Shown here: piece after piece, positions 18,310-54,787 of the stretch | Layout: each line of letters begins with the position of its first letter | Numbering within the stretch: position 1 is the first letter of the stretch | DNA from: a virus | Reading direction: 5' to 3' (one strand) | Virus record (IMG/VR): IMGVR_UViG_3300033990_000306 | Span: 24,475-88,474 of that record | Length of the DNA stretch: 64,000 nt | Position numbers and translations under genes: made by a program | Notes under the pieces: generated by a model | What the model was told of the DNA's origin: nothing | The model's database searches: none | Seen by the model: the letters and a program-made list of their open reading frames with translations, nothing else

Positions 18310-19398
18310 GTGGCAGAAAAGGTTCAAGTAAAAGTATCTATAGTTACTGATGATAAAGATGTAAACGTATTAAAGTCAAAGCTTTCTAAAGCTCTTAGTG
18401 GGGTTATTGGCGATGATATGGTTAAGGGTGCTTCTCTTATTGGGCAGTCTCTTAAAACTGGAGTTGTTAAGAATTTAGAAAATGTTTATAGTAGAATTAG
18501 AAATATTCTTGGGAAAACATTTAATGTTAAAGTTAGTGGAGAAGTTAAGGAAGCTAAAGTTGGAGTACCTAAACTACCTAAAGAAGAAGAGAAGAAGAAA
18601 GGAGAGGAAGCTTCTAAAGGAGGAAACAAATTATTAGCAGGGGTAGCTAGTATAGCCGCAGGAATTTTTGGAATTATAACACAACTTAAACCAGTTAGAA
18701 TAATACTTGATGCTATAGGGAATATGTTTCAGTTAATATTTTTGCCTATAGGTTTAATTTTAATGGCTTTCTTAGCACCAGTATTAATGGGACTAGCTAG
18801 TATTATAAGTAGCAAAACTTTTCAGGGAATTTTAACTCAGGTTATTAAGTTTGTAACATTTATGTTTACTATTTCTCCGACAATAATTAAAGGAATAGGG
18901 GCAGTATTTAAAGAAGTTTTTACTCCGGCTGTAAATATACTTAGGGCTACTTATGACATCTTTAGGTCTGACATAGTACAAATTATAGGTTATGTAAACG
19001 CTTTGAATAGTATAGTACATAATGGTCTTGGAGAGCTAGGTAATTTTATTTTGAGTTTGCCTGTAAGAATATATAATTATTTTGTGGGGTTGTTTAATGA
19101 CTTAGTAAAGAATTTTGTTTCTGGTATAGTTGGAGTATTTTCTGGGTTTGCTAATAAACTTAATCCTGTCTCGTGGTTTTCTAGTTTGCCTCACTTAGCT
19201 AATGGAGGGGCAATAGTTTCTGGAGGGTTAGCTGTTCTTCATTCGGGAGAAACAGTAGTGCCAGCTAATCAGAGTTTTGGTGGGCATACTTTTAATATAA
19301 CAATTAATGGAAGTAATAGTATGCAGTCACCTAAAGATTTTGCTAATCAGGTAATGCTTGAAATAGAAAAGAGAACAGGGAGATTACAAAGATGGTAA
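18310..19398 (+). CDS. tape measure protein (short, 362 aa)
   Basis: Amphipathic helical protein after the chaperones; C-terminal PHLANGG.IV.GGLAVLH.GETVVP and FNITING motifs. Confidence 0.8.
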   Translation: MAEKVQVKVSIVTDDKDVNVLKSKLSKALSGVIGDDMVKGASLIGQSLKTGVVKNLENVYSRIRNILGKTFNVKVSGEVKEAKVGVPKLPKEEEKKKGEEASKGGNKLLAGVASIAAGIFGIITQLKPVRIILDAIGNMFQLIFLPIGLILMAFLAPVLMGLASIISSKTFQGILTQVIKFVTFMFTISPTIIKGIGAVFKEVFTPAVNILRATYDIFRSDIVQIIGYVNALNSIVHNGLGELGNFILSLPVRIYNYFVGLFNDLVKNFVSGIVGVFSGFANKLNPVSWFSSLPHLANGGAIVSGGLAVLHSGETVVPANQSFGGHTFNITINGSNSMQSPKDFANQVMLEIEKRTGRLQRW

Positions 19399-35388: not shown

Positions 35389-36804
35389 ATGGCTGAAAGA
35401 ATAGACTATACAAATATATTTAAGTCCCCAACTTTGTTTGCTATGAAGGTTTTAAAGGTAATGCCGTTGAGACACCAAGCACAAATATTAGAAGACGAAA
35501 GTTCAAGAATATTAATAGTAAGTGGAAGACAGGCTGGCAAGTCTACTCTCTTAGCAATTAAAGCTTTATGGACAGCTTTTGTTAAACCTTCACAGGACAT
35601 ACTAATAGTAGCCCCAACACTAAGACAGAGCCGAGTAGTATACCAACGAATAACAGACTTTATACTTTCCTCAAAAGAAGTTAAAGCTCACATTTTAAAA
35701 AGTAATATGGAAGAAACTAGATTTGACAATGGGAGTTATATTCGTTGCTTAACAGCTTCAAAGACTGGAGAAACTATAAGAGGGTTTAGTGCTACTATGT
35801 TAATATTTGACGAAGCTGGGAGTATAGAGAATGATGAAGTGTTTTCAGCAGTAGAGCCTTCTTTGGCGGTTAAAGGAGAACAATTAATACTAAGCGGTAC
35901 ACCAAGAGGAAAGAGGGGTTACTTTTATAATAACTATGCAACCAATGACAAAACAAAGCGTTGGCAAATATATAAGTTTACTTCGAGAGTTAACCCAATA
36001 ATAACAGAAGACTACTTAAAAGAGGAAAGGGCTAATATGACTGAGAATAGGTACTTAGAGGAGTATGAAGCAGAGTTTATTGACGAAATAGGGCTGTTTT
36101 ATCCTCAAGAGTTAGTAGCCCAATGTTCAGAAGACTATACTTATACATTAGAGAGAGAGGAAGGTTATAAGTATTATTTGGGTGCAGACATAAGTAGAGC
36201 AGGTAGTGATGAGACTAGTATAGTTATTATTGCTGTACCTGACGACCCAATTAGAAAGATTAGAGTAGTTTGGGCGGAAGGATTAAAGTATAGTGATATA
36301 ACAGTATCCTCCAGAGAAATAATAAGGAAGGCTTTAGCTATAGGAGTAGAACAAGTGTTAGTTGATGCTATAGGAATAGGAGGGGGAGTATATGATATTA
36401 TTCAGAAAGAGTTGGGGAGTAGTAAGGTTACTGCCGTTACTCTTGAAGGAGAAAGAAGGGAGACTGCCTATACTAATTTAAAGATAATGCTGGAGAAGAG
36501 AAGGTTAATACTTAATGAGAATGACACTAAAATGTATCACCAGTTTAGTAGTTACTCTTTAAAAGAAAAAGTAGGAGGAGGAATAAGAATAGTAAAGAGT
36601 GAGGAAATACACGATGATATAGTTGACGGCTTAGTGTTGGCTTTGTATGGAGTAGAGAGTATTACTAAGTTTACAGTTTTTGAAGGAGTTAATTTAGACA
36701 ATGATTTCTTTAAGAATTGGGCAGAACAGAGTGCAATGCAGTCAGTTATAAAGTCTCCACTTAATTCGCCTTTCTATTATCCGTTAGACTATTTGGAGAA
36801 GTAA
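35389..36804 (+). CDS. terL: terminase large subunit
   Basis: SGRQAGKS Walker A, LIFDEAG Walker B, SGTP.G, EYEAEF, GADISRAGSDETS and HDDIVDGL nuclease motifs. Confidence 0.93.
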   Translation: MAERIDYTNIFKSPTLFAMKVLKVMPLRHQAQILEDESSRILIVSGRQAGKSTLLAIKALWTAFVKPSQDILIVAPTLRQSRVVYQRITDFILSSKEVKAHILKSNMEETRFDNGSYIRCLTASKTGETIRGFSATMLIFDEAGSIENDEVFSAVEPSLAVKGEQLILSGTPRGKRGYFYNNYATNDKTKRWQIYKFTSRVNPIITEDYLKEERANMTENRYLEEYEAEFIDEIGLFYPQELVAQCSEDYTYTLEREEGYKYYLGADISRAGSDETSIVIIAVPDDPIRKIRVVWAEGLKYSDITVSSREIIRKALAIGVEQVLVDAIGIGGGVYDIIQKELGSSKVTAVTLEGERRETAYTNLKIMLEKRRLILNENDTKMYHQFSSYSLKEKVGGGIRIVKSEEIHDDIVDGLVLALYGVESITKFTVFEGVNLDNDFFKNWAEQSAMQSVIKSPLNSPFYYPLDYLEK

Positions 36805-38717: not shown

Positions 38718-38959
38718 AACTACAAAATATTTATATACTACTTAGGTCAAACTATATAAACTTTTTTTAATTTTAATTACTACAAAAACTTTTTATAAAA
38801 TTAGAGAATTAGGGATTATCGACTCTATGTAACCATAGGGGGAGCAGGGGGGAGTGGAAAAAGAAAAACACTATATAAAGAAAAATTTGCGACCAGAACT
38901 ACAAAACATTTATATAAAATTAACGAATTAGGAATTACAGACCCTATAGAAAAATAGGG
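38718..38959 (+). promoter_or_regulatory. three copies of ACTACAAA-N3-TTT(A/T)TATA promoter-like element, two within a 62-bp imperfect direct repeat
   Basis: Copies at about 38719, 38779 and 38898; 38779-38840 aligns with 38898-38959. Confidence 0.7.
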
Positions 38960-38975
38960 ATGGGAGTGACAACGA

Positions 38976-39470
38976 ATGTCTAAGAAGGACAGACAGGTAG
39001 AACCTGTGGAAAACGGAAATGGAGCAGCCGTTGGTGGTACCATACCAGAAGCCACCAGCGAAAACGTACCTGAAGTGAGTCAGGAAGCCAAGGACTTGGC
39101 TACTGAATTTGGGAAATCACCAGAAGAAGTGCAAAAAGAAATAGACGCACTACTTCAAGAGCCTGCACCTAAAAGGGGCGGAGCAGGTAGAACTGCCATA
39201 GAGAAAACGCCCGGTGAAGAGCTTAGGTTCCATAAAGGCACAAGTGGAGCCCTTGCTATATTTGAGGCGAGAATGGCTGGCAATAGGAAGTCGCCAACTG
39301 AGCCTAAGAAGTTCAGACTCATAATAACCAACAGTGGGGTTCGCTGTGAGTATATGGACAAAAAGGGCACGCACGGCTTTAACAAGAAGCCAGCAGACCT
39401 TAGCGAAGCAGGGTGGAAGCAGTTCGCTCAGACAGAGTTTGTGTCTCTGAGGAATTTGCCTATAAAGTAG
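38976..39470 (+). CDS. hypothetical protein, likely first and strongly expressed early gene
   Basis: Flanked by the repeated promoter and a strong terminator; GC-richer codons; acidic N-terminus, basic C-terminus. Confidence 0.7.
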   Translation: MSKKDRQVEPVENGNGAAVGGTIPEATSENVPEVSQEAKDLATEFGKSPEEVQKEIDALLQEPAPKRGGAGRTAIEKTPGEELRFHKGTSGALAIFEARMAGNRKSPTEPKKFRLIITNSGVRCEYMDKKGTHGFNKKPADLSEAGWKQFAQTEFVSLRNLPIK

Positions 39471-39490
39471 GCATTTTTCTTTTTTTTTGT
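39457..39490 (+). terminator. hairpin plus poly-T terminator
   Basis: TGCCTA-TAAAG-TAGGCA followed by TTTTTCTTTTTTTTT. Confidence 0.75.
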
Positions 39491-39500
39491 TTGTTAGTTT

Positions 39501-40006
39501 GTGAATAGGGAAGAGGTGAGAATAGTGGCGACAGTTGAAGAAGTGGTGGAAGGGTTCAATAAAAGGTACAAAGAGAATTTTGGCTATATGGACTTGCCGA
39601 GTTTTGTCATAGTGAAGACCAAAGCTTTTGTTGGCGGGTATAGGTTTGGGCTATTGGTTAAGGAGATAGAAGGGGCGTTGAACTGCCGATACTTTGGTGT
39701 GGAGAGTGCAGAAGGAGTTGTAGAGCTGGATTTCGAGAAGAATGAAAACATTGTTAAGGAGTGAGAATAGTGGAAGACATAGAGAAAGTAGTGGCAGAGT
39801 TTAATAAAGATTTTAAGGAGAGGTATAAGGTTCTGCTATTGCCTCATTTTGCGACAGTGCAAATAAAGAGGTTCGTGAGTAAAGCTATTTTCAACGAATT
39901 GATTAAACGTGTGGAGAAGCTAGACTACAAATATTATGGCATAGAGAGCTACAATAGTATAATCGAGGTTAATTTTGTGAAAACAGAATACCATATAGGG
40001 AAATAG
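39501..40006 (+). other. pair of tandem paralogous small genes (39501..39764, 39761..40006)
   Basis: Shared RIV...E.VV..FNK..KE....LP.F..V..K.FV and Y.G.ES motifs. Confidence 0.75.
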
Positions 40007-40081
40007 GTTCCGGTTTACGGAATGTATATGGTACCTGTTGGAGCATATTCCGAGTTAATAGAGAAATAAAAAAAGAAAATA

Positions 40082-40370
40082 TGCAGGCTGTAACCAGAGG
40101 GGTCCGATAAAGTCACCCGCCTGTGGATAATTCTAACGTCTGGTGTCCCGTCAGCAGACTGTTCAACCGACAAGAAGAATTTCTTGTTGTCTGTTGACAA
40201 TATGTTCAGAGGTTGACTGCTCCGAGTAAGGTTACCTGCTACTTACTGCAAACGGAGTTATATAGCAGGGAAAACTCTGGAGGGTGAAATTGGGACAAGT
40301 AGCCCGCTAGAGATAATGCCCAGTAGGCAGGGCTTCCACGTAGTCTGGGCGGGTAATGCTAAAAACTGCC
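40082..40370 (+). ncRNA. candidate large, multi-pseudoknotted structured RNA of unknown family
   Basis: GC-rich intergenic island with more than 10 complementary helices, several of them loop-to-distal pairings (see findings). Confidence 0.65.
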
Positions 40371-40380
40371 AATATGTAAT

Positions 40381-40734
40381 TTGGAGGCGAAAAAAACGAA
40401 AGAGAAAACAGTAGTTATAGAAGAACAACCATTGATAGTCTTGGTAGGAATGTCGGGGTATGACAAAGAGGCTCATAATTTGCCCATAATGGCACATATG
40501 CTGAAAGAAGCAGAAATAGGCAAAGAGTTTAGTGCCTATTGCGGAAACATAAGTAGGGACGCTTATGAGGAGTCTCTGAAAGTAATATACAAAGACGAAA
40601 ATGGAGTGGCTGGGCTATTGAGAAGTCACGGGTACTATGATAGCTCAAACCAGAACAATGAGTATGAGAATGAGCCTACTGTAGTATGGTTTGAACTCAG
40701 GGTTCCTACTAATGGGTGGAATGGGGGAGACTGA
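40381..40734 (+). CDS. hypothetical protein
   Basis: 117 aa ORF; start uncertain. Confidence 0.55.
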   Translation: MEAKKTKEKTVVIEEQPLIVLVGMSGYDKEAHNLPIMAHMLKEAEIGKEFSAYCGNISRDAYEESLKVIYKDENGVAGLLRSHGYYDSSNQNNEYENEPTVVWFELRVPTNGWNGGD

Positions 40735-40739
40735 AAAGT

Positions 40740-41483
40740 ATGGTGAGTAAAAAAGTGAATTATTTTAAAGTTTTGGGAGAAGGGTTGAAGACTGTGAAAG
40801 GTTTTCAATGGACTCCCGGTGAGTGGAATGAAGAACCTAATGCAGTAGTTGACGGAGAAGCTTGTGGAATGGGACTTCACGTTTATATTGGGCGACCGAA
40901 TTGGAAGTTTCAGTATTATCTTCCAGACCACGTTTATAGAGTTGAGAAGGTGGAGGGTTTATGCGGTAAGGATGAAGAGAAAGCGAGGTTTAAGAGGGTG
41001 AAATTAGCTAAGCTTCCAATGAGTCTAGAAGAGCTTCTTGGTCCTGAGAAAGACGGGTTGAAAGGGACAGATTTGTCAGGAGCTGTTTTAGCTTCAGCAA
41101 ATTTATACAGAGCAAAACTGTCTAAAACTCAACTGTCAGAAGCGAATTTGGCAAATGCACTTTTAAGTGAAGCAGATTTATCTGAAGCAAATTTATTAGA
41201 GGCTATTTTGTCAAATGCATATATGAGTGAAATAAACTTATCAGGAGCAAACTTAACAGCAGCGAATCTGTCTAAGGCATTTTTAGTAAGAGCAAACCTT
41301 TCAGGAGCTAGGTTAATAGGAGCAAATCTTTCAGGAGCAAGTCTACAAAATGCAAACTTGTCAGGAGCAGATTTAGTTAATGCAAATTTGTCAGAAACAG
41401 ATTTGTACAAAACTAATTTGACAGGAGTAGACTTGTCAAAAGTAAATCTCTCTGGAGCAGACTTAACTTACGTAATTCGCTGA
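40740..41483 (+). CDS. pentapeptide-repeat protein with N-terminal CG.GLH domain
   Basis: More than 25 tandem A(N/D)LS.-type pentapeptides; ATG 40740 with GGGGGAG RBS. Confidence 0.9.
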   Translation: MVSKKVNYFKVLGEGLKTVKGFQWTPGEWNEEPNAVVDGEACGMGLHVYIGRPNWKFQYYLPDHVYRVEKVEGLCGKDEEKARFKRVKLAKLPMSLEELLGPEKDGLKGTDLSGAVLASANLYRAKLSKTQLSEANLANALLSEADLSEANLLEAILSNAYMSEINLSGANLTAANLSKAFLVRANLSGARLIGANLSGASLQNANLSGADLVNANLSETDLYKTNLTGVDLSKVNLSGADLTYVIR

Positions 41484-41542
41484 GGCACTGATGAGCCCGT
41501 GAAATTCGGGCGAAACCGCAATATTTTGTGCGGTCTGCCAGC
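41479..41542 (+). ncRNA. type I hammerhead ribozyme, predicted cleavage after C41535
   Basis: Stem I GGCA/UGCC, CUGAUGA 41488-41494, stem II GCCCG/CGGGC, GAAA 41512-41515, stem III CCGCA/UGCGG, GUC cleavage triplet. Confidence 0.93.
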
Positions 41543-45979: not shown

Positions 45980-46037
45980 AACTACAAACTCTTTATATAC
46001 TTTTTCCCTATTTCCAACCAACAACCCTATAGAAAAA
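45980..46037 (+). promoter_or_regulatory. fourth copy of the ACTACAAA-N3-TTTATATA...ACCCTATAGAAAAA promoter element
   Basis: Same two boxes and near-identical spacing as 38898-38954. Confidence 0.7.
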
Positions 46038-47745: not shown

Positions 47746-49614
47746 GTGGAAAAACCAGAATTAGTTATAGGGCAGTTTTGGAATAATGTAATATATGATA
47801 ATTACGGGTTTAGTACTTATATTACGTTTGGCAAAATGACTCATACTTCATTGCTGAACGAAAAAAGTGGAAAGAGTTTTACTATTACAATAGCTGAGCA
47901 GTCTAAACTTTATACTTCTGAACACAAGAGGCAACTGTTTCTATTTTTCCACGAGGTAGGGCATTTAAGTCTTAACAGTTTTAAAATGGACAAAATATTT
48001 CTTGATAAATTTAACCCAGCAGATAGTTTAGCAAGGGATGACATTTTGTTGGGTGTTAATGCCATTGACGACATAATAATAAATTTTGCCATTCCTAGAA
48101 CGTTCATAGGGTTGGAACAGGAAGTTAGAGCTTTTATAGAGGACAATGCTAAAATTCTGAAAATTGACGAAGAAGAAATATTAAAAGCGGCAAAGGGTAA
48201 AATATTAGACCCGAAGTCTTTGGCTGTGTTAGTAGTATTTTCAACCTTAGACCGACTGTTGGGGCTAGGGCTTATTAGAGGGGAGTTAGATAAATATGTT
48301 GGTGAATTTTTTACTGCATTTAACAAACTTCGTTCAGTAGCTGGGTTTGATTTTACTGCTCTTTATGAGAAAGGTCATAAGTTTAATACAACAATTTATA
48401 TGGAAGCATACGAAAATGTTTTGAATACTTTTATAAAGATTGCTGTTGAGTTAAGAAAAAACATTCCAGTAATAAAGGTTCAAACAGAAGGTGTTGGAGA
48501 AAGTGGAGAAGAAGATGATGAGTCTGGAGGTCAAGGTTCTTCACCAAAAGGCGGTAAAAAAGAATCAAAACCTCAGAAGCAGGGTAGTTCTTCTTCTGAA
48601 GCAGAAGAGTCAAAAGAAGAAAAGGAAGAGCAAAAAGCAAAAAAAGGAAAGTCAGGTAAATCTAAAAAAGAAGGAGAAGAAGGAGAAGAGCCGATTACAG
48701 GCTCAAGTGATAGTGTAATAACTCAAGAAGTAGAAATTACATTGACTGACGAGGAAATTAAAGAAATGGCTTCAGAAATTGAAAAGCAAAAAAAGCAACA
48801 TTCTTCTACTGTAGCTAAACCTAGAAAACTTACTATGACAGCTTTAGTGAATAATGCTGATAAAATTTTCGAGAATAAAAGTTATTTGCCATTCTTCAAG
48901 AAAGCGTTAGAGGAAGCGATGAGAGGACTGAGTAAGAAGTTTAATGATGAGAAAGGGAATTTGGTAGTTAGTAAATATGTTCAGGCTTTGAAAGGAGGAA
49001 CGCCAAATATTTTCAAAAGAGCAACAGAACAAAGTGTAGAAAATTCTAAATGGATGTTTGTTATTGACGTGAGTGGGTCAACATTGAGTAGAACTATTCC
49101 TAACTATCCTGACATTACAGTTAGAGCAGAAATAGAAATTGCAAAAACTTTCATAAACCTATTGCCAACTTCGTCTAAATTTTATATGGCGAGATTTGCT
49201 GAACAGTATCAAATTTTGTCTGAGGGGTTTGTTAATAGAAATACTGCTAAAATGTTTCTAGCACAATGCTTGGAGTATGACAGGAGCATAGATGGTACTG
49301 ATACTATTTGGGGAGAAGATATGGTGAAAGAAATGTATGATAAAGCAAAAGAGAAAGTACAGGTAGTTGTATTTACTGACGGACTTGTTGAATTTGAAAA
49401 TGAGAAAGCAAAAAATTTGGCTATTAGATTGTTTAGTGAAATAAATTACAAGCCAATATTGTTCTTCTTCGGGAAAGACTTTATGGAGTATGCTAGTGGA
49501 ATAAGTGAGAAAGCACACTTAAGAACTGACATAGATTTTAATGCTATAGTTGACGGACAGAAAGCTAACAAGAATTTGTTAAAGTATTTGACTTCTATTT
49601 TCCGGAGGTACTGA
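47746..49614 (+). CDS. metallopeptidase-like (HExxH) plus acidic linker plus vWA domain protein (MoxR partner)
   Basis: FFHEVGH, NAIDD..IN, low-complexity E/S/K linker, VIDVSGS MIDAS, GT, VFTDG. Confidence 0.85.
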   Translation: MEKPELVIGQFWNNVIYDNYGFSTYITFGKMTHTSLLNEKSGKSFTITIAEQSKLYTSEHKRQLFLFFHEVGHLSLNSFKMDKIFLDKFNPADSLARDDILLGVNAIDDIIINFAIPRTFIGLEQEVRAFIEDNAKILKIDEEEILKAAKGKILDPKSLAVLVVFSTLDRLLGLGLIRGELDKYVGEFFTAFNKLRSVAGFDFTALYEKGHKFNTTIYMEAYENVLNTFIKIAVELRKNIPVIKVQTEGVGESGEEDDESGGQGSSPKGGKKESKPQKQGSSSSEAEESKEEKEEQKAKKGKSGKSKKEGEEGEEPITGSSDSVITQEVEITLTDEEIKEMASEIEKQKKQHSSTVAKPRKLTMTALVNNADKIFENKSYLPFFKKALEEAMRGLSKKFNDEKGNLVVSKYVQALKGGTPNIFKRATEQSVENSKWMFVIDVSGSTLSRTIPNYPDITVRAEIEIAKTFINLLPTSSKFYMARFAEQYQILSEGFVNRNTAKMFLAQCLEYDRSIDGTDTIWGEDMVKEMYDKAKEKVQVVVFTDGLVEFENEKAKNLAIRLFSEINYKPILFFFGKDFMEYASGISEKAHLRTDIDFNAIVDGQKANKNLLKYLTSIFRRY

Positions 49615-52954: not shown

Positions 52955-53801
52955 ACATACTTCAAATTTGCCTAGTTATTCTTTGGACTCACCAATAGTT
53001 TACCAGCTTGAAATAGTAGGAGGTACTTGTAACTTGAAGTGTCCTGTTTGCCCTGTAACAGAAAATAAAACAGACAGGGTAAATAACTACTTTAGTCTAG
53101 CTACACTTGACAAGCTAATAAATGAAGACGCTTTTAAAAACACTTTCTACTTAGAACTACAAATGTATGGAGAACCAACAATGCATAGAAACTTTGACGA
53201 AATAGTAAGCAAACTGAAAACTACTGGGGTCAAACTTGGGCTAAGCACTAACGCTACAATATGGAGAGAGGGCTTTAAACAATTAGACTTTATAACTATT
53301 TCCGCAGACAGCCGAATTTACAGGGTTGGGCGAAATGAAGAACACTTCTGGAAAGTAGTTGACAAAATAATAAATGAAACTAACGCTCATATTGATTTGC
53401 AGGTCATAGAAATTAACGACTGGGAAAAGCAGGTAAAATTGCTGGAGGAAAAATATAAAGACAAAAGCAACGTGTTAATAAGAACAATAGGGGACAACTT
53501 CGGAGACACGGGAAGACACCCGTTAGCTAATGATGTTTGTATTAACCCATTCATTAGTGTGAGTGTAGATAGTGACGGAGACGTAGTTCCTTGTTGCTTT
53601 ATGAATAATAAAGAGTATGTCTATGGTAATATTAATACTAACAGTCTGAAAGAAATTTGGGAAGGGCAACTTCATAAAGACTTCGTAGAAAGTTGGTTAA
53701 GCGGAAATATTATTGAGAAGTGTAAAAATTGTAGAATGAGGAGTCCACAGTTATTACATTATAGGTTTGCCGTAGAATGGGAAAGGAGAGGGTGGTTGTA
53801 A
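52944..53801 (+). CDS. radical SAM protein with C-terminal SPASM/Twitch domain
   Basis: CNLKCPVC, YGEPT.H, STNA; CINPF..V.V..DGDVVPCC...GNI...SL.EIW...CKNC. Confidence 0.88.
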   Translation: MLSKHTSNLPSYSLDSPIVYQLEIVGGTCNLKCPVCPVTENKTDRVNNYFSLATLDKLINEDAFKNTFYLELQMYGEPTMHRNFDEIVSKLKTTGVKLGLSTNATIWREGFKQLDFITISADSRIYRVGRNEEHFWKVVDKIINETNAHIDLQVIEINDWEKQVKLLEEKYKDKSNVLIRTIGDNFGDTGRHPLANDVCINPFISVSVDSDGDVVPCCFMNNKEYVYGNINTNSLKEIWEGQLHKDFVESWLSGNIIEKCKNCRMRSPQLLHYRFAVEWERRGWL

Positions 53802-54787
53802 TGATAACAAAATATTCCAGAATACCGCATATAGATAGTGATGAAGTAGTAAGAGTAATTAAAAGTCTAGAGACAAATAAGTATGTTATAGAAGAGAAAG
53901 TAGATGGCTCTCAATTTAGAATTTATGTTAGTGAAAATGGAGAACCTACTTTCGGCAGTCACGGAGTAGACTTTCAGGAATTAGAAGGCAATTATGTGTT
54001 TGGAGAGAAATACCAGAAAGTAGAAAGTATGTTTTCTCTTGCAATAAAGAGAGGACTTGAAGTTGCTGAAAGGTGGAAGACTGACCACAAGGGAGAGAGC
54101 TTAATGCTATTCTGTGAATTTATGCACTCAGAAAGGGAAAACACATTGCTATATGAAAGAGTACCTAAAAATAATCTCTATTTGTTTGACGCTAAAATAA
54201 ATGGAGAGTTAGTTAAGGAAGAAGAGAAACTAATTAACTTGGCGAACTACCTAGAGCTAGAGCCAGTTAATGTTTATGCTATACTTGACCACTTTCCTAC
54301 AATCGAAGAAGCACACTCTTACTATACTAAGCCAAGCTGTCTGGGAGGGATAATAGAAGGGGTAGTAATAAAGAATAGAGAGGCTATGGTTGAACGTTAT
54401 GGCAACATTACTTTCTTTGCTATGAAGGCGGTCAATACCAGCTTTACACAGTTAAATAAAGAAACTTGGAGAAAAGAAAGAAAAGCTGGAATAAGAAGTA
54501 TTGACGACTTAATAGACTTTCTGTTTGAAAAAGTGGACAAACAAACTATTTGGGCTCATACTTACGCCCACACTAAAGAGGAGGGCAACCTTACTGGGCA
54601 AATGAGAGATATGGTCGAGTTAATAAAAACATTTGAAAAAGACTTTGAAGAAGACTATCGTGAAACAGTAAGCAAACTACTCTATGAGAGCCTCAAAAGC
54701 AAAATAATAAAACAGGGGCTAAGAGGACTGGCAGAGTGGTACAAAGACAAACTAATAGAAAACTTGGGCAACTCGCTAAACTCTTAA
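53801..54787 (+). CDS. ATP-dependent RNA ligase (Rnl2-like)
   Basis: KY.RI.H, EEKVDGSQFR (motif I KxDG), FCEF, YLFD, EGVVIK, MKAV. Confidence 0.8.
   Translation: MITKYSRIPHIDSDEVVRVIKSLETNKYVIEEKVDGSQFRIYVSENGEPTFGSHGVDFQELEGNYVFGEKYQKVESMFSLAIKRGLEVAERWKTDHKGESLMLFCEFMHSERENTLLYERVPKNNLYLFDAKINGELVKEEEKLINLANYLELEPVNVYAILDHFPTIEEAHSYYTKPSCLGGIIEGVVIKNREAMVERYGNITFFAMKAVNTSFTQLNKETWRKERKAGIRSIDDLIDFLFEKVDKQTIWAHTYAHTKEEGNLTGQMRDMVELIKTFEKDFEEDYRETVSKLLYESLKSKIIKQGLRGLAEWYKDKLIENLGNSLNS

Follow-up and report, generated by a model that had tools for sequence, protein, structure and literature searches.

Large, ornate non-coding RNAs such as GOLLD and ROOL are often phage-borne; they measure about 580-800 nt, occur in bacteria and phages, show strong covariation and have Rfam models. 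The RAGATH motifs, twister-sister, hatchet and pistol were reportedly discovered by Weinberg et al. in 2015 in phage-like DNA, in the neighborhood of hammerhead and twister ribozymes, and Klein, Misulovin and Eddy are said to have used GC-rich islands in 2002 as a screen for non-coding RNAs in AT-rich archaea. Structured mRNA leaders offer a further comparison, for which a length of ~300 nt is long. To our knowledge, very few structured leaders, or regulatory or non-coding RNAs, have been described from archaeal viruses.

We analyzed an element of ~300 nt that is probably a credible structured RNA of the + strand, with strain-level support and outside the known families, in a tailed virus that likely infects archaea. 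The element is half the size of GOLLD and ROOL and differs from them further in being single-copy, in having relatives at the strain level only and in matching no Rfam model. As in the RAGATH setting, viral DNA here carries a family-less structured RNA and, ~1 kb away on its strand, a hammerhead; the element fits none of the RAGATH, twister-sister, hatchet or pistol models, however, and the weak RAGATH-1 and Hammerhead_3 scores fall on the hammerhead itself. It resembles the archaeal islands as a GC-rich, ORF-free and well-folding island in an AT-rich genome of archaeal type, but it abuts a gene start and lacks a promoter and terminator of its own. Like structured mRNA leaders, it immediately precedes a start codon on the sense strand, lacks its own promoter and terminator, and stays joined to the downstream gene across haplotypes; it also has a predicted multi-helix domain and, behind it, a segment that may pair with the initiation region. 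Unlike them, it is without a match among the Rfam riboswitch and leader models, comes from a likely archaeal virus and is ~300 nt long.

The window, that is, the whole 64,000-nt stretch that was analyzed, corresponds to positions 24475-88474 of the 88.5-kb linear IMG/VR record IMGVR_UViG_3300033990_000306, the completeness of which is estimated at 79%. Metagenomes of mine drainage, mine tailings and sediment, generated in three studies, contained near-identical DNA. The virus carries tailed-virus genes (a T4-type large terminase and a prohead protease), genes for replication and metabolism (PolB, a family B DNA polymerase; PriL, the large subunit of the archaeo-eukaryotic primase; and a ribonucleotide reductase), a MoxR/vWA pair and an RNA ligase domain protein, which, in a virus that also has a hammerhead, hints at a possible link to RNA end-healing or ligation. 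All genes are on the + strand and the genome is tightly packed, with 10 non-coding gaps of at least 150 nt in 88 kb. The viral collections that we searched by blastn, megablast and terL contained no close relatives: the terL search returned just three loci, 23-24% identical, and a megablast of 10 kb against the GenBank phages found no match. Judged by these comparisons, the virus stands far from all entries of the reference collections. Because of its BRE/TATA-like promoters, the combination of PriL with PolB and the haloarchaeal-virus terL as the best match, an archaeal host and membership of the archaeal tailed viruses are likely. The features discussed below are collected in Table 1.

Table 1. 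Coordinates of the element, its sub-domains and neighboring features; positions are those of the window.
Feature	Position	Strand	Remarks
Large terminase (terL)	35389-36804	+	Best GenBank match Halogranum tailed virus 1, 28.5% identity, E 5e-46
Promoter motif CTACAAA-N4-TTATATA	38720-38737, 38899-38916, 45982-45999	+	Archaeal BRE/TATA-like
Tandem paralogous small genes	39501-39764, 39761-40006	+	38% identical; second encodes 81 aa
Conserved 5' flank	40008-40081	+	Small hairpin 40008-40022, variable hairpin tip 40036-40045, A-rich spacer 40060-40081
Core of candidate structured RNA	40082-40370	+	Limits of the preliminary description; fold z score, no Rfam match, no ORF, indel, single copy
Long bulged hairpin, H2-H3-H4	40132-40216	+	Alone -30.7 kcal/mol, z -3.25
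Hairpin H5/H6	40219-40258	+	GCUCCGAGUAAG / CUUACU-GCAAA-CGGAGU; in RNAalifold consensus
3' domain, fold uncertain	40268-40370	+	H7 of the preliminary description (40318-23/40345-50) and PK5
Possible start-covering helix	40333-40389	+	GCUUCC 40333-38 with GGAGGC 40384-89; RNAalifold
ORFan gene P0001, 117 aa	40381-40734	+	TTG start, no Shine-Dalgarno upstream
Hammerhead motif	41484-41539	+	Core CUGAUGA...GAAA...GUC, three stems, open stem I; predicted cut after GUC 41535
RNA ligase domain protein	53777-54787	+	PF09414, E 1e-11

The core lies in a 374-nt gap (40007-40380) between the 81-aa gene and the 117-aa ORFan P0001. There was no credible ORF in this gap, and its longest stop-free + strand frame has no start codon. 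The gap can be excluded as coding sequence because the variant strain described below carries a 1-nt insertion (+C) after 40308 with conserved sequence on either side. At 45%, as against 34% for the genome, its GC content is the highest among the 10 non-coding gaps of the record. The preliminary description had portrayed the locus as a GC-rich island without a credible ORF behind an A-rich spacer, and this portrayal held, as did its helix and loop sequences, all of which were found in place and complementary as claimed. The second GC-richest gap of the record, a 495-nt ORF-free stretch with 40% GC at record positions 364-858, is located outside the window. The element is single-copy, with no paralogue in the 88-kb record, and apart from low-complexity A-runs it shows no complementarity of at least 14 nt to the rest of the virus.

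The + strand of the element folds with a minimum free energy (MFE) of about -100 kcal/mol (-99.0 to -100.5; z -3.67), and none of 100 shuffles was as good. When the window was scanned in 212 bins of 300 nt, the bin with the element had the lowest MFE and ranked fifth by z. Two largely coding bins, 38882-39181 (z -3.96) and 40382-40681 (z -3.49, within the ORFan P0001), reach z scores comparable to that of the candidate. The pairing density, for which a dinucleotide-shuffle check had been proposed at the outset, exceeded the controls, with 19 perfect Watson-Crick 6-mer complements against 9.4 +/- 3.6 in the shuffles, 6/500 of which reached 19. With the seven nested helices of the preliminary description held fixed, five disjoint loop-loop 6-mers were counted against 1.1 +/- 0.9, a number reached by 1/1000 shuffles. 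This loop-loop enrichment means that more pairing exists, knotted or nested, than the seven helices capture. Folding and complementarity are moderately above chance. The - strand also folds well (z -3.13), and the 5' flank alone (40008-40090) folds no better than shuffles (z 0.0 and -0.7).

A metagenome scan for relatives recovered a single locus, from the variant strain L005 (SCLI03000545.1); tailings and sediment contigs carry the same haplotype, with small variations among the differences listed. Between the window and this strain, 51% of the columns differ across 39740-40007, the upstream gene region, 6.6% differ across 40008-40308, and 40309-40400 is identical. Identity thus rises from 49% to 93% at 40008. 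The second tandem gene (39761-40006) is a very divergent allele in the variant strain. The 6.6% divergence of the element, compared with about 0-1% for the downstream gene P0001, may reflect a recombination mosaic. Directly after the upstream stop codon comes the small hairpin of the 5' flank, and the variable hairpin tip (40036-40045) reads UGGA in the window and forms a GAAA tetraloop in the variant.

The core differs from its variant copy by 12 substitutions and one insertion. Half of the substitutions fall in H2, H3 and H4 (40152-54 CAG>UGA, 40169-70 GA>AG and 40210 A>G), and all six exchange a Watson-Crick pair with a G-U pair while the opposite strand is unchanged. These helices had been proposed from one sequence, before the comparison was made. 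Random transitions in the proposed helices would be tolerated in 56% of cases, so that preservation in 6/6 corresponds to p = 0.03. On the - strand, by contrast, every variable H2-H4 pair is mismatched in one of the two strains. Since the six changes keep pairing on the + strand only, the + strand RNA appears to be under structural constraint, for which this is the main argument, and the comparison supports a real + strand RNA structure. The argument has its limits: the pattern is significant at no better than ~0.03, and the pair-preserving changes form three clusters. Among the 81 proposed pairs, this single strain-level relative shows seven one-sided preserving changes, none that is two-sided and one broken pair, so two-sided covariation was absent from the comparison of the window with this strain. 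The other differences fall in loops or contested pairs (40090 G>A, 40107 A>C, 40239 C>U, 40240 U>A, 40306 G>A, 40307 C>U and the inserted C).

The bulged hairpin at 40132-40216 is the best-supported part of the element. Its 10-bp H3 (40150-59/40189-98) is stacked on the 8-bp H4 (40169-76/40181-88) and closed by H2 (40132-39/40202-10). A shifted register, with 40164-67/40193-96 and a small hairpin 40138-45/40152-59, fits the variant strain equally well. The stems of H5/H6 are invariant between the strains, and their pair probability is 0.98 in the variant; in the ensemble of the window they are out-competed by 40235-41/40263-69, the pairing of their loop that had been proposed as PK4. In the 3' domain the winning helices differ between the window, the variant and the consensus; alternatives there are 40275-80/40307-12 and 40349-53/40366-70, and three of the strain differences (40306 G>A, 40307 C>U and the C inserted after 40308) lie in this domain. 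The possible start-covering helix 40333-38/40384-89, a candidate for an expression platform that would by turns mask and release the initiation region, is predicted in the consensus fold, with a probability of 0.90 in the variant and below 0.6, and so not dominant, in the window's own ensemble. As modeled, this helix could possibly cover the start region of P0001.

The preliminary description had further claimed at least five pseudoknots and called the RNA heavily knotted, which our analysis did not bear out: there was no covariation, nested folds were more stable and one of the knots is sterically implausible. A sequence of this kind has ~9 perfect 6-mer complements at chance level, as judged from the shuffles. 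Four of the five pseudoknots are invariant in the variant strain. In the remaining one, PK4, one pair changes from C-G to U-G and is kept and one from U-A to A.A and is lost; the two loop changes responsible (40239 C>U and 40240 U>A) leave PK4 at 5/7 pairs. PK3 would join 40163-68 with 40211-16, and no linker follows the last H2 pair, with the bulge target ~18 bp up the same stack. Because there is no linker and yet a reach of ~18 bp, PK3 should, on geometric grounds, be unable to coexist with H2 and H3.

Every pseudoknot strand also has a competing nested partner. In the consensus fold, CUCUGG 40275-80 and CUAGAG 40307-12 form a helix; GGUUG 40211-15 can instead extend the base of the long hairpin, and CUGCC 40366-70 has nested partners in GGCGG 40349-53 or GCAG 40083-86. 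UAUAGC 40261-66 can pair with GCUGUA 40087-92, where the substitution 40090 G>A turns a G-U pair into A-U. The proposed nested helices amount to -51.8 kcal/mol and the best nested fold containing them to -81.8 kcal/mol, ~17 kcal/mol short of the free nested MFE of -99.0 kcal/mol. The five pseudoknot duplexes sum to only -39 kcal/mol before loop penalties. Taken as a whole, the earlier observation is partly confirmed.

These results bear on the possibility that the gap has no function and is a GC-richer leftover, such as a recombination scar or decayed sequence, with chance pairings. The many competing folds, with no single dominant structure common to both strains, agree with such an origin, as do the poorer fold of the variant copy (z only -1.8), the location at a mosaic junction between strains and the lack of relatives beyond strain level in the collections searched. 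Against a leftover speak the lowest MFE in 64 kb, the excess complementarity, the pairs kept at all six helix substitutions and the tight packing of the genome, and we consider this explanation unlikely.

The statement that the RNA could not be assigned to a known family was borne out. A cmscan with the 4227 models of Rfam 15 (which include riboswitches, RNase P, SRP, tmRNA, group I/II introns, GOLLD, ROOL, HEARO, raiA, RAGATH and the small ribozymes) gave no match at the gathering threshold over the whole 64-kb window, and a scan of 40000-40400 with the most permissive filters gave none at E<10. In a 1.8-kb search, only a noise match fell in the region of the element (40035-40098, group-II-D1D4-4, 12.6 bits, E 7.4). 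By these scans, the element belongs to no Rfam 15 family. No tRNA or tmRNA was found in the 64-kb window with ARAGORN. A distant-mode blastn of the element against the GenBank phages yielded no homologue, and two of its 21-22-nt motifs had no match in the viral contigs, nor did one of them in the genome contigs. At the level of sequence similarity, the element has no relatives beyond the strain level in the collections searched.

Several RNA types were considered individually and rejected. A group I/II intron is contradicted by the upstream gene, which ends like its tandem paralogue and relatives, by the downstream ORF, which has its own start, and by the lack of an intron model match. For archaeal bulge-helix-bulge excision, we looked for a helix, a 3-nt bulge, a 4-bp helix, a second 3-nt bulge and a helix formed from two borders; the scan of 39950-40460 gave five weak AU-rich or internal candidates, none of which convincingly brackets the element. 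The small self-cleaving ribozymes (hammerhead, twister, pistol, hatchet and HDV-like) were represented in the element by neither a model match nor a hammerhead core. A possible resemblance of GGGUGAAA..AAGUAGCCC to RNase P specificity-domain motifs found no support from any covariance model. The + strand of the element contains no RUGAUGA C box or CUGA D box of a C/D box sRNA. A Y RNA with a Ro60 partner was rejected because a Pfam search of the vWA protein (47746-49614) at E<1 gave no TROVE domain and its PDB sequence matches include no Ro60. The hallmark of the VIPR vrRNAs is tandem YNNGG repeats, four or more (bioRxiv 10.64898/2026.04.26.720920); no run of at least three YNNGG units occurs on either strand of the element.

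The genes on the two sides differ in how they are linked to the element. The 81-aa family has few relatives, at the strain or species level, all on mine-metagenome contigs, and its profile matched neither viral nor genome contigs. The AF2 model of the 81-aa protein (pLDDT 83) has the order alpha-beta-beta-alpha-beta-beta with generic PDB matches only, and these structure matches gave no sign of an RNA-binding partner. P0001 has no relative but itself among 5.8 billion proteins and no Pfam match; AF2 modeled it poorly (pLDDT 49) and the protein atlas was uninformative. The flanking proteins had no match in the viral contigs. P0001 can nevertheless be taken as coding because the indels in variant contigs (144 nt; 1+2 nt) all keep the reading frame. 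In one metagenome contig 40395 is joined to 40540, an in-frame skip or replacement of the 144 nt at 40396-40539, and a second variant gains 1+2 nt at 40707 and 40710. By these alignments the N-terminal third of P0001 is variable, and the variant with a different N-terminus still retains 40349-40395. In every haplotype seen, the element is linked to P0001, while the upstream gene is swapped. The core ends 10 nt before the TTG of P0001, on the sense strand and with no promoter motif or oligo-T between. Neighboring genes have GGAGG-N8-start, as against P0001, which has no Shine-Dalgarno.

A further copy of the repeated promoter element is located at 38780-38798 on the + strand, and there is no viral promoter motif just upstream of the element. 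A strong oligo-T tract (39474-39488, T5 C T9) directly after a 164-aa gene is likely an archaeal terminator, so that the genes from 39501 on would need read-through or an unrecognised promoter. The interval 39489-41279 contains no oligo-T run of at least five. Since the element has no recognisable promoter or terminator of its own, the simplest reading is that it is read through with its flanking genes. The preliminary description had put the element on the same early transcript as the hammerhead; the two are on the same strand with no oligo-T of at least five as far as 41279, which makes a shared transcript plausible but leaves it at that.

An alternative at the level of DNA is that the gap is a control region, an internal promoter or operator of 40381-40734, and that the RNA pairings are incidental. 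Such a promoter could be sought in the one-mismatch copy CTGCAAA-N5-TTATATA at 40246-40264, from which transcription would start near 40290, and the TTACT at the 5' flank of this copy is also present at the 38780 copy. However, the spacing of the copy is one base off, it overlaps the 3' strands of H5/H6, and a similar number of one-mismatch matches is expected by chance, a second being located at 19070 on the - strand. The high GC content is unusual for the promoter regions of this virus (30% in a real promoter gap), and a DNA-level function leaves the strand-specific, G-U-only variation in 40150-40210 unexplained. We regard a DNA control region as rather improbable.

Because the element abuts the next gene start and has no promoter or terminator of its own, we tentatively propose that it acts in cis on an early polycistronic mRNA, as a structured leader or intercistronic element that affects translation, stability or processing of the downstream genes. 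The gap 40008-40380 would be transcribed within a + strand polycistronic early mRNA. The robust core would consist of the hairpins 40132-40216 and 40219-40258, probably joined in a multi-branch domain, followed by a less certain 3' domain terminating 10 nt before the TTG. The element would in effect be a long leader of P0001 (40381-40734), acting in cis. It may set translation initiation of this SD-less gene, for instance if 40333-38/40384-89 makes the start accessible or hides it, and/or it may set the stability or processing of the local transcript. The functions suggested in the preliminary description (a ribozyme, a decoy or a nuclease-resistant RNA) found no support, and the position argues rather for a leader or intercistronic element acting in cis. 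The earlier interpretation is partly supported.

Alternatively, the element could be a stand-alone stable non-coding RNA, either excised from the early transcript or transcribed from a promoter that escaped recognition. Acting in trans, it might be a decoy, sponge or scaffold for a host or viral protein, in the setting of an accessory or anti-defence block. The size and stability of the fold would suit such an RNA, and a possible terminal stem, 40078-86/40366-77 (GCAG/CUGC, p 0.81), would close the domain. Accessory genes are located nearby, encoding a DUF7666-pentapeptide protein and an STIV B116-like protein, and the same-strand hammerhead motif may be counted as a sign of transcript processing. 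Against this, there is neither a promoter motif upstream nor an oligo-T terminator downstream, the element is single-copy and, outside the A-runs, has no complementarity of at least 14 nt to the virus. No partner protein was found among the candidates, where the 81-aa fold is generic, TROVE/Ro60 is missing and P0001 is uninformative. We therefore doubt that the element acts on its own.

The 88-kb record contains a single hammerhead motif, 1.1 kb downstream of the element. The motif folds as a three-way junction, and its Rfam scores are sub-threshold (Hammerhead_3, 22 bits; RAGATH-1-hammerhead, 19.7 bits). Its core had no match in the viral contigs. The 33-nt core (41484-41516) recurs with different flanks elsewhere in these mine metagenomes, on unrelated contigs where stem III differs and is again self-complementary (AUCCC...GGGAU vs CCGCA...UGCGG). 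Because the core recurs with a different self-complementary stem III, the hammerhead appears to be real and either mobile or widespread, which suggests a ribozyme common to several members of the community.

Given this neighbor, one could imagine that the element is a new self-cleaving or self-processing ribozyme that works with the hammerhead to release a defined mRNA or RNA fragment. The same-strand location of the hammerhead 1.1 kb downstream and the RNA ligase domain protein (53777-54787) encoded by the virus would fit such a system. The element is nonetheless without a ribozyme or RAGATH model match at E<10, without a hammerhead core and without a bulge-helix-bulge at its borders, and at ~290 nt it is much above the known small ribozymes, which makes a new ribozyme very hard to believe. 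It is also improbable that the element founds a new class of structured RNA in archaeal tailed viruses, whether as a signal-sensing switch that activates an early accessory or anti-defence operon (the ORFan, the DUF7666-pentapeptide protein, the hammerhead and the B116-like protein) or as an RNA that acts in trans or as a catalyst once freed from that transcript along with hammerhead cleavage.

At present, the element is a good candidate with support at the strain level only, and its value hinges on distant copies or RNA data. It heads a block made up of the ORFan, the pentapeptide-repeat protein, the hammerhead and the B116-like protein. If real, the element would provide a handle on the control of early or counter-defence genes in such viruses.
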